A stretch of 63,057 nt of DNA, counting the filler, from Collodictyon triciliatum (Eukaryota): NCBI GenBank assembly GCA_043381765.1. It is 6 parts of 6 records of this genome, joined end to end, with 100 filler letters (N's around TTAATTAATTAA, not from the genome) between each part and the next. Parts side by side here need not be neighbours in the genome. Positions count along the whole stretch, not along the records: positions 34,585 to 45,996 come from JBHJMP010002408.1; 5 more parts are not named here. One strand, given 5' to 3'. The notes below the pieces were generated by a model. The model ran no database searches, was not told the DNA's origin, and was given only the letters and a program-made list of their open reading frames with translations. Positions 34,737 through 37,700 of this stretch are shown here, one piece after another. The position numbers and the translations under genes were made by a program. Every line of letters begins with the position of its first letter. Within the stretch, counting starts at the first letter, position 1.

Positions 34737-37700
34737 TTTCCAAGACGAGAAATCAGAAGCTTTAAGGGCTTTTCGAGAAGCTTCCCAGAGGTATCACGCC
34801 TCATACAGCGCTAAATTCTTTACACGCATCACTTTTCATGAAGCCGCGTTGGCGAAAGGCGGGCAAAGTCCGTTCCTTGCATTTTTGGAGTTAGATCGCA
34901 AGGAAGGGATGTTCATATGGAGGTCACACATCTCATATTTCTGTGGTTATAAATATTCTCATGTGTGTACCTAGGCAGTGGTATGAAAAACATAAAATGA
35001 ATGTAATAAATATACATTTCTGTGTATGGATTAATTACTAACATTTCTATGGATATGTAATAACCTAGGAATGGCTACTTCGCCACTTACAAAGGCAGTT
35101 TTGATTCAGATATGATAGCAAATATGGCATCATCCTACTCTGCTAATCCCATATCAAAGTTGCCGACGGAAAATGAGTTTAATGCTGTATCCAAACTGAC
35201 GCAAAGAGTCATGTGTGTTGGCCCCTCCATAGGTTTGCAGTTTCCAGATTCGAATCGTCCTCGTTCAATCCCAGTTAAGATATGGGCATTCTACATCACA
35301 ACAATTCATAATTTTAATATTATTACTTTTTCTGTGAAATCTTATGACCACAAGACCTTAACGACAACGAAATCTAGTTTATGAAGCCTGTCTAGATGCG
35401 GCCTATTTCTGGTTTCCTCGATTTCAATTCGATTACTTCAACAAATCAGATGTAGAGTCAAGGTAACTGCTAATTGTGTGAAATATTCTATTTCAAGAAC
35501 TCGGCATATGCATCCACTTTCAAAACTTCATGTATACGAACACTATGGAAAGATTTTAATGCAATATCCTAGCAAACATGCGATAATCACTCTGAATCTA
35601 TTTGGAGAGTCTTCACCCAATACTGTCACGGTGGATATCAGCAGAATTTGTGGCTCTTACATCATCGCCTATATTCGAGAAACAGTAAATTCAAAAATTT
35701 ATACTGTAGACGACCGAAACTTTGCAGGTTGATTAATCATCCGGGTTATTATCGAATCATTCAAATATTTCGTGTTTGAGTTGTCTCAGAATCAGCAAGT
35801 AATGATATATCGAGACTGACACGTATTTTCATTTGATCTATAGCCTTATTTGACTCACAGTTTCCAACGGTAGTGATGATATCAAAGGATTCAAAGACAA
35901 TCAGCCCAGTAAGAAGATTCGAGCATCAATTCAGATGAATAAAATAATAGCTATAATTTCACACTTTATTTCTAACAGAAAGCAACAAGCTTTTTCTCTG
36001 TTGTCCGCGGATTGTTAGCAGATCCAAAAATGACCTTCATGTCCATGACTCTGGAATCCAAGGTTTTGCTCAACTCATAGTTTGAAGGATGTTCAACATT
36101 ATATCATAATATCAGAAAAAAAGGCCTTCTCTAACAATTCAGTTAATGAAATCGCTTGAATCCAATCTATGCATCGATTCCAAATACTTAAAAAAAAAAA
36201 CGGATTTGTAAATTAAATAGATAGGTTCATCATTATTTCCTAAAGGCAGCCGAATTCCTGCGTTTCTACTTTTGCATAAAGTACTTTCCTTAGTTATAGA
36301 TTTGATTTCAATTATGTTGATGTTTTTTTTATGGATATCGCACATGAATAAGTTATACTCTTGGCTTTGTCGTTGATAAACTTAAGCTGAAATAGAATAG
36401 ACCGATTCAATACACCGGTGCTCTGGCGACATCGTCTTTTTCTGTTTGGATATCAGGCACATGGGAATCCCTAGAAAAAAGCGTCAAAGTTTTGACTGAC
36501 ACATCAATCGATAAAATGATGCAAAATGGCGTGAAGAACCACGAAAAGGTACACTTAAGCATGATTCTGTTTTGTTTCTCAACTTACAAAGTCCTAGTCT
36601 CAAACAAATGACTGTCAAAGTTTCCTTAAACGAAACACATTGAATCAAAAGGGAAATCTGGTGGAAGCAGAGAAATCCTACAAGGCAAGAAATTCATTTT
36701 TCTTATATCAAACAACCAAAAAAAAATCCTCAAAGTGTATCCTCTACCCGCCACATTTTCTTGACATTAAAATATCTTTAAAACCTGGGTTTCAGAAAGT
36801 CATAAAGGAAAGTCCAAATTATTCCCTTGGTCATTACAATCTCGGAATATTGTACCAACAAACAGGAAAGATGGCTGAGGTATACGATGACGGCGCATGT
36901 CACTTCAAAATTTTACAACGAAATACAGACATACAGATGTTGAACCTTTTTTTTTTACCCGAAACCCAGGCTTTTGAGAAGTTCTCGATATCAATCAAAC
37001 TCGACCCCTATTTCACACAGGTGATACATCCAATATTATACCTGCTCATTTAACAAAAAAAAAAATCATTTTTTTATGTAGCTCGAATTTTGTCTTAAAT
37101 GTCATTAATTTCTAAACAGCTCTTCATGAGTCTTGGTGATCATCATTTGTCCGTATGGTTTGACCTACTGCATTTTACATTTTCTTACTTGTTTATTTAA
37201 TATTTTTTTTATTGTCATCAATATTGTTTGAATCGAATGATAAGATATAATTATGTTTTTTTTATTATTGTTTCTGTTCTTGTGTTGATTATTGTTATTT
37301 TATTATGAAACTGTAAACTGCATTAGTCGTACGTTTGTTTGAATATCCAGTGATCTAAAATAAAATTACTGTAGGAAAAGAACTATTTTCTTGCGATTCC
37401 CGCATATAGAGCCAATATTGAGGTGTTTTTCCTACATTTTACACAGTTTCTTCCATTTCTCGTCGGTTTTCTTAATATTATTATTATTATTAAAAAAATT
37501 CCAAAAATATGATGATGTTTCAAAATCATTTTTGCTGGCTCACTGCTAAAAATCTCCGTTACTTGTATTCTCATTATTAATTTAAGTCCAACTTTTCATC
37601 ATCTGGTTAGCCGCTTCTGAATCAAATAGTCCTTAAATGTGATGTTGCTGTACAGATAAATCCCAAGCACTCGGAGGGTCACCATCTCGTAGCCTATTGC

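Follow-up and report, generated by a model that had tools for sequence, protein, structure and literature searches.

An OGT-type GT41 gene of Collodictyon triciliatum with a probable orphan N-terminal extension

A stretch of 63,057 nucleotides (nt) from the genome of Collodictyon triciliatum (GenBank assembly GCA_043381765.1), here called the window, carries on its plus strand an intron-rich gene encoding tetratricopeptide repeats (TPRs) followed by a glycosyltransferase of family GT41, to which the O-GlcNAc transferase OGT belongs. Eight coding-like segments lie upstream of the TPR exons and probably extend the same polypeptide at its N-terminus. The window is eukaryotic in character, with a GC content of about 35%, short GT-AG introns and many microsatellites. 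Identical N44-TTAATTAATTAA-N44 linkers recur at 11435-11534, 22957-23056, 34485-34584, 45997-46096 and 57509-57608, at a spacing of about 11.5 kilobases (kb), and because of this recurrence the window is read as a chain of separate pieces of about 11.4 kb. The TPR-GT41 gene lies on the piece at 34585-45996 (JBHJMP010002408.1) and runs into its left edge, placing the true 5' end outside the window. Given the linker at 34485, the DNA to the left of this piece is not the genomic neighbour of the gene. A preliminary description of this DNA had the signal peptide region lost in a gap; the 5' end is indeed missing, but what interrupts it is a linker between pieces rather than a sequencing gap.

The gene was modelled with 18 exons (E1 to E18; Table 1) that join in one open frame of 1157 codons. 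Its introns, 16 of the GT-AG and one of the GC-AG type, measure 70-326 nt each and end on AG acceptors throughout; in 16 of 17 cases the GC content of the exon (0.36-0.50) exceeds that of the intron that follows it (0.20-0.38). The upstream segments, E1 to E8 (34737-36548), continue in the same open frame into the TPR exons, and the junction of E1 with E2 reads ..FIW-R on one side of a GT..AG intron and NGYF.. on the other. The peptides quoted in the preliminary description are read from the plus strand where it placed them. Its proposal that the upstream exons splice in frame into the TPR-GT41 gene holds as far as an open in-frame chain is concerned; the individual joins are not unique. The single GC-AG intron, at 36685-36795, falls inside the first TPR, and its removal yields a clean 34-residue repeat, whereas its retention leaves the frame open and the repeat broken. 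Intron 16 contains a microsatellite, (ATT)n followed by (ATCATT)n, at 38617-38760.

Table 1. Features of the TPR-GT41 gene and of the 5' edge of the piece that carries it
Feature	Position	Strand	Description and basis
Artificial linker, N44 + TTAATTAATTAA + N44	34485..34584	.	joins two ~11.4 kb pieces; cuts the 5' end of the gene
Heptanucleotide microsatellite, CATTATT-like	34590..34720	.	left margin of the piece, ahead of the acceptor of E1; direct reading
E1, first exon present	34737..34922	+	61 whole codons plus split codons; gene 5' partial; GC 0.47 against 0.29 in the next intron
E2	35069..35232	+	splice model; alternative donor 35263/35274
E3	35378..35462	+	splice model; among the least certain (with E5, E6), dropped or changed in alternative paths
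E4	35573..35727	+	splice model; acceptor 35572 recurs in alternative paths
E5	35844..35908	+	splice model; among the least certain (with E3, E6)
E6	35979..36062	+	splice model; among the least certain (with E3, E5)
E7, micro-exon of 35 nt	36246..36280	+	required for the frame; if its donor is unused, stop at 36289-36291
E8	36401..36548	+	last part of the extension, then helix A of TPR 1; ATG pair at 36516, the first in frame close to the TPRs
E9-E12, TPR exons	36652-36684, 36796-36879, 36970-37020, 37120-37152	+	splice model, Pfam TPR, blastp
E13-E17, TPR exons	37375-37422, 37656-37850, 38177-38372, 38460-38517, 38841-39162	+	splice model, Pfam TPR, blastp
E18	39373..40905	+	linker and GT41 catalytic domain (N-Cat, C-Cat), stop codon; PF13844, human OGT match

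The downstream part of the gene is a GT41 enzyme with TPRs. The last exon matches Pfam PF13844 (Glyco_transf_41) with 323.2 bits against a cut-off of 25 (E 3e-96), the Pfam families TPR_1/2/8/11/12/16/17/19 match E10, E14 and E17, and the spliced model contains a continuous TPR region of about 10 repeats over residues ~294-650. Among solved relatives human OGT scores best (277 bits, E 2e-81), followed by the OGTs of Xanthomonas (173 bits) and Thermobaculum (145 bits) and by Arabidopsis SPINDLY (117 bits). As in human OGT and plant SEC, a TPR superhelix precedes the N-Cat and C-Cat lobes. The human enzyme matches in two stretches, and its residues 399-511 (113 residues) stand opposite 7 residues of the query (query 287-295 against 398-512 of the chain); because these 113 human residues are skipped, the intervening domain between the lobes of human OGT is absent from the Collodictyon protein. 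Kept at the nucleotide-sugar site are the His of ..DF..HP.., the Gln and Lys of ..NQ..KID.., and the His and Asp of ..NGH...D.LWAG.P.., which by role and numbering we take to be UDP-sugar-binding residues, while the two Thr that follow the His of NGH in human OGT are replaced by Ser. Judged by these alignments, the C-terminal 870 residues are clearly an OGT-type enzyme, as the preliminary description had proposed for the gene. UDP-GlcNAc is the likelier sugar donor, and GDP-fucose the less likely one, since SPINDLY is more distant from the query than human OGT is in the ranking of solved relatives. Arabidopsis SPINDLY, a protein O-fucosyltransferase, shares with the query the combination of TPRs and GT41 without an intervening domain (PMC10027727).

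The nearest proteins in a large collection, taken as 240 TPR-GT41 proteins (the best 120 in each of two length classes), are bacterial and reach at most 42% identity. Such bacterial enzymes of the 'SPINDLY family', of which Xanthomonas XcOGT and Thermobaculum OGT are examples, have the same layout as the query and likewise no intervening domain. Proteins of 700-860 residues can be aligned over their full length with model residues ~290-1157, with an identity of 28-33% that rises to at most 42% over the catalytic exon, and whole proteins align from model residue ~282-307 to 1157 (residues 48-850 of an 860-residue protein and 9-805 of an 807-residue protein). The query differs from them in that its gene contains 17 introns and lies in eukaryotic DNA, and in that its N-terminal 280 residues have no counterpart in alignments with the 240 relatives compared. 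Proteins sourced from EukProt are absent from the best 120 of either length class, so no close orthologue is on record. P0121, the best near match with 42% identity, was considered as an orthologue and rejected, being a bacterial-looking, partly duplicated protein.

OGT, SEC and SPY are described as consisting of TPRs and a catalytic domain only and as choosing their substrates by means of the TPR lumen. Set against this domain make-up as it is generally given, the Collodictyon protein would probably carry at least 290 extra residues before its TPRs. This architecture, unfamiliar to the authors of the preliminary description, is likewise not seen among the 240 TPR-GT41 proteins compared.

The upstream region is coding-like, with a signal of moderate strength, and its exons can be joined in frame to those of the TPRs. 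All eight segments have a GC content of 0.39-0.47 against 0.27-0.35 in the spacers. An initial frame test, in which the model frame was best in 8 of 8 N-terminal exons, was discounted as partly circular: it penalised stop codons, of which the model frame is free by design. In the frame test used here, stops were ignored, GC was cancelled, and in-frame codons of well-supported exons were contrasted with out-of-frame ones; summed over E1-E9, the model frame scored -2.8 bits against -31.1 and -52.0 bits in the other two. The best spliced path on the plus strand scored 66.1, a value reached by none of 10 shuffles (26.1-48.6), and the reverse strand scored 52.1.

The N-terminal region of about 290 residues appears to be an orphan, without a detectable relative in the searches made. 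Profile, fold and database queries were run with single unspliced exons of 21-61 residues and have low power, and the HMMER filters drop most matches above an E-value of about 0.1. Pfam returned no family at E<=10 for any of the seven N-terminal exons scanned singly, thioredoxin-type families included. At the same threshold, phmmer of E1, E2, E4 and E8 against the PDB gave no PDI or thioredoxin chain and two chance-level matches, to a light-harvesting protein (E 1.3) and to ribosomal protein bL25 (E 0.46). An exhaustive phmmer search with E1 found no match at E<=0.001 in 1,835,955,588 representative proteins, and in metagenome tblastn none of 352 pattern matches for E1 and none of 433 for E2 were confirmed. 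The ESM Atlas gave no usable match for E1; for E4 its best scores of 0.77-0.80, to unnamed clusters, fall in the range of shuffled sequences. Its recognition values were 1270 for E1 and 1216 for E4, against 2300, a value reached by 91 of 100 known-family proteins. When the spliced N-terminal 306 residues were compared with the 240 relatives, blastp gave no alignment at E<3. Within the window itself, neither tblastn with the N-terminal region nor a scan for [WFY]CxxC brought up a paralogue or an upstream thioredoxin exon, the matches being confined to low-complexity DNA.

The composition of this region is aromatic- and aliphatic-rich and not of low complexity, and in a crude propensity scan of low accuracy, a lead rather than a test, strand-like and helix-like segments alternate along residues 1-295. 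AlphaFold2 on E1 alone returned an all-helix default (pLDDT 61.7, pTM 0.28), a low-confidence result for a single exon. Three segments of about 100 residues each, compared with one another, show no internal repeat beyond their built-in overlaps, and compared with the thioredoxin domain of Escherichia coli CnoX they show no similarity (z 0.03, 1.32 and 0.72). The preliminary description had pointed to hallmark patterns of PDI-family thioredoxin domains and had seen no CXXC. The latter observation is borne out over the whole 1157-residue model, which has no CxxC and four Cys in residues 1-306. Among the four patterns, P[IV]..L....E matches, while F.D..S.....F..AA, [IF][FW]RNG....Y.G....I and Y.G......WI have no match as written and are recovered in shortened or re-spaced forms. 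The hydrophobic pattern of residues ~88-257 may parallel the b-b' region of PDI, again a lead rather than a test. PDI b-type domains are nearly invisible to sequence methods, and all sequence tests of a thioredoxin reading are weak for them. The negative searches therefore make a canonical a-type thioredoxin domain unlikely, while a b-type fold may yet be present. A thioredoxin-like fold of the extension is judged less likely than not.

That the upstream exons and the TPR-GT41 part form one gene and are fused in the same polypeptide is probable, with the joins predicted from the DNA. TPR alignments to homologues start inside E8, at model residues 266-293, and the 38 codons of E8 that precede the ATG pair are open in the model frame alone and score +7.6 bits, a score that none of 949 intron windows reaches (highest 0.57). 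The length class of E7 (2 mod 3) is exactly the one that links E6 to E8 in frame. Several observations weigh on the other side. In absolute terms E1-E9 carry a frame-specific codon signal near zero, the -2.8 bits given above, and the model frame is best in just five of nine single exons; the path score on the plus strand is just moderately above those of the reverse strand and the shuffles. The splice-path optimiser prefers other in-frame paths at all intron penalties (1-6 bits), and these alternatives have only two of nine introns in common with the model and re-use the acceptors 35068, 35572, 36245 and 36400. This codon-likelihood optimiser was itself rejected as an objective gene model, for it is too crude, being GC-driven, leaving in place an intron that disrupts a TPR and singling out no path. 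The cytosolic location considered below is assumed from the family. Finally, residues 1-11 of many bacterial homologues align at model residues 280-293, just ahead of the ATG pair, from which it follows that the ancestral protein began beside that pair. This last alignment is what a pair of genes would lead one to expect: an orphan of E1-E7 ending at 36289-36291 by read-through of the E7 donor, followed by a TPR-GT41 gene that starts from the ATG pair at 36516. Such a division would also suit an E7 of just 35 nt, the lack of unique N-terminal joins, and the fact that OGT, SEC, SPY and the bacterial relatives require nothing upstream of their TPRs. The two genes would, however, share a strand with only about 220 nt between them, and the division would leave aside the exon-like, in-frame codons before the ATG and the fitting length of E7; we consider it rather unlikely. 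A plain TPR-GT41 gene preceded by noncoding DNA, either chance open segments or a decayed remnant, would account for the orphan status in all searches, the weak absolute codon signal and the low ESM Atlas recognition of E1 and E4. It is very improbable in view of the GC content of all eight segments relative to their spacers, the lead of 28-49 bits that the model frame holds in sum over the other two, the AG and GT flanking each segment, and an amino acid composition that is not of low complexity.

The location of the enzyme separates the remaining readings. No hydrophobic or transmembrane segment occurs in the 1157 residues, the best 19-residue Kyte-Doolittle mean being 1.44, in the catalytic domain; the C-terminus, ..IVIKEDEY, is not of the KDEL/HDEL type, and there are three N-x-S/T sequons. 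To our knowledge, every characterised OGT, SEC and SPY is nucleocytoplasmic or mitochondrial, and the enzyme would by analogy be cytosolic or nuclear. A search of full-text literature found no paper that mentions GT41 and O-GlcNAc transferase together with a signal peptide and a lumen, and in the excerpts of the matches listed GT41 and thioredoxin co-occur just incidentally. Together with the few sequons and the lack of CxxC, these observations speak against the PDI-like client-binding module in the lumen of the endoplasmic reticulum (ER) that the preliminary description had proposed for a secretory-pathway GT41 enzyme. That model shares its thioredoxin-fold leads with the cytosolic alternative below, has its natural analogue in UGGT (UDP-glucose:glycoprotein glucosyltransferase), whose thioredoxin-like domains are described as a misfold sensor for a luminal glycosyltransferase, and could place a signal peptide at the true N-terminus outside the window; it is nonetheless highly improbable. 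Even if it were true, the likeness would lie in thioredoxin-like sensor domains placed ahead of a glycosyltransferase domain, as described for UGGT, whereas the catalytic domain of UGGT belongs to GT24, the protein lacks TPRs and its place in the ER is proven, and no sequence similarity to it was seen. The more specific idea that a eukaryotic GT41 transferase of the O-GlcNAc type captured redox-inactive thioredoxin-like domains (PDI b/b'-type) in tandem, to bind and sense its clients, making it a GT41 counterpart of UGGT, is very unlikely as well. A thioredoxin-like module beside TPRs need not mean the ER, because in bacterial CnoX/YbbN chaperedoxins and in plant TTL proteins the same pairing is reported to be cytosolic (PMC10998233 for CnoX/YbbN). 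Redox-inactive thioredoxin-like domains could on this model act as a holdase or adaptor beside the TPRs and feed a cytosolic O-GlcNAc transferase. The relaxed versions of the hallmark motifs, the alternating strand and helix segments of the crude scan and the existence of this known pairing are in keeping with such an arrangement. The CnoX/YbbN and TTL proteins, however, have no glycosyltransferase domain, and the negative results for thioredoxin-type Pfam families (seven exons), for PDI or thioredoxin chains in the PDB (four exons), for similarity to CnoX and for an internal repeat all tell against it, leaving it unlikely, if less so than a luminal enzyme.

The explanation preferred here, tentatively and with a confidence a little short of even, is that of a protist gene, rich in introns and truncated at its 5' end, which encodes a GT41 enzyme of the OGT type with a lineage-specific N-terminal extension, acting in the cytosol or nucleus. 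The copy of the gene in the window is cut on its 5' side by the end of the contig. About 10 TPRs would present protein substrates to a GT-B catalytic domain of two lobes, which retains the UDP-sugar-binding residues of O-GlcNAc transferases and lacks the metazoan intervening domain. Most likely the eight short exons upstream belong to the same polypeptide and lengthen its N-terminus by at least 290 residues. This extension looks like a folded alpha/beta region without a detectable relative, and it may serve as a lineage-specific extra recognition or regulatory module ahead of the TPR superhelix.

Other pieces of the window carry further genes and repeats. A FolC/folylpolyglutamate-synthase-like gene of at least three exons lies at 14730-16854 (plus strand) and matches Mur_ligase_M and Mur_ligase_C. 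Its best relative is a transcript of Diphylleia rotans, with 61% identity, and the next matches are all bacterial FolC proteins with at most 49%; it is a bacterial-type gene in a protist, with Diphylleia rotans as the only close eukaryotic match. A single open frame of 492 codons at 58341-59816 (plus strand) contains FG-GAP_2 repeats (E 1.8e-35) and is followed downstream by a long low-complexity stretch, Ser/Leu/Phe-rich, at 59827-60382. An open frame of 342 codons at 11889-12914 (plus strand) contains leucine-rich repeats (LRR_14, E 1.8e-22). On the piece that carries the GT41 gene, an open segment at 43484-43660 (minus strand) resembles by eye the C-terminal lobe of a protein kinase, this 58-residue piece having no Pfam match at E<=0.001. 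Lys/Glu-rich low-complexity frames at 23651-24200, present on both strands and reflecting an AAG/GAA-type repeat, are probably noncoding.

The solid result is an ordinary OGT-type gene together with an orphan N-terminal region, from a lineage of poorly sampled protists. If the fusion holds, the protein is a variant of the known TPR-GT41 architecture with an added N-terminal region. On the reading with captured thioredoxin-like domains, a signal peptide on the missing 5' exons would make this GT41 enzyme the first to act in the secretory pathway. A thioredoxin-like fold of the added module would tie client recognition of the chaperone type to the addition of O-GlcNAc. An OGT that carries a large extra folded module before its TPRs would, if true, represent another route by which protein O-GlcNAcylation can be directed.

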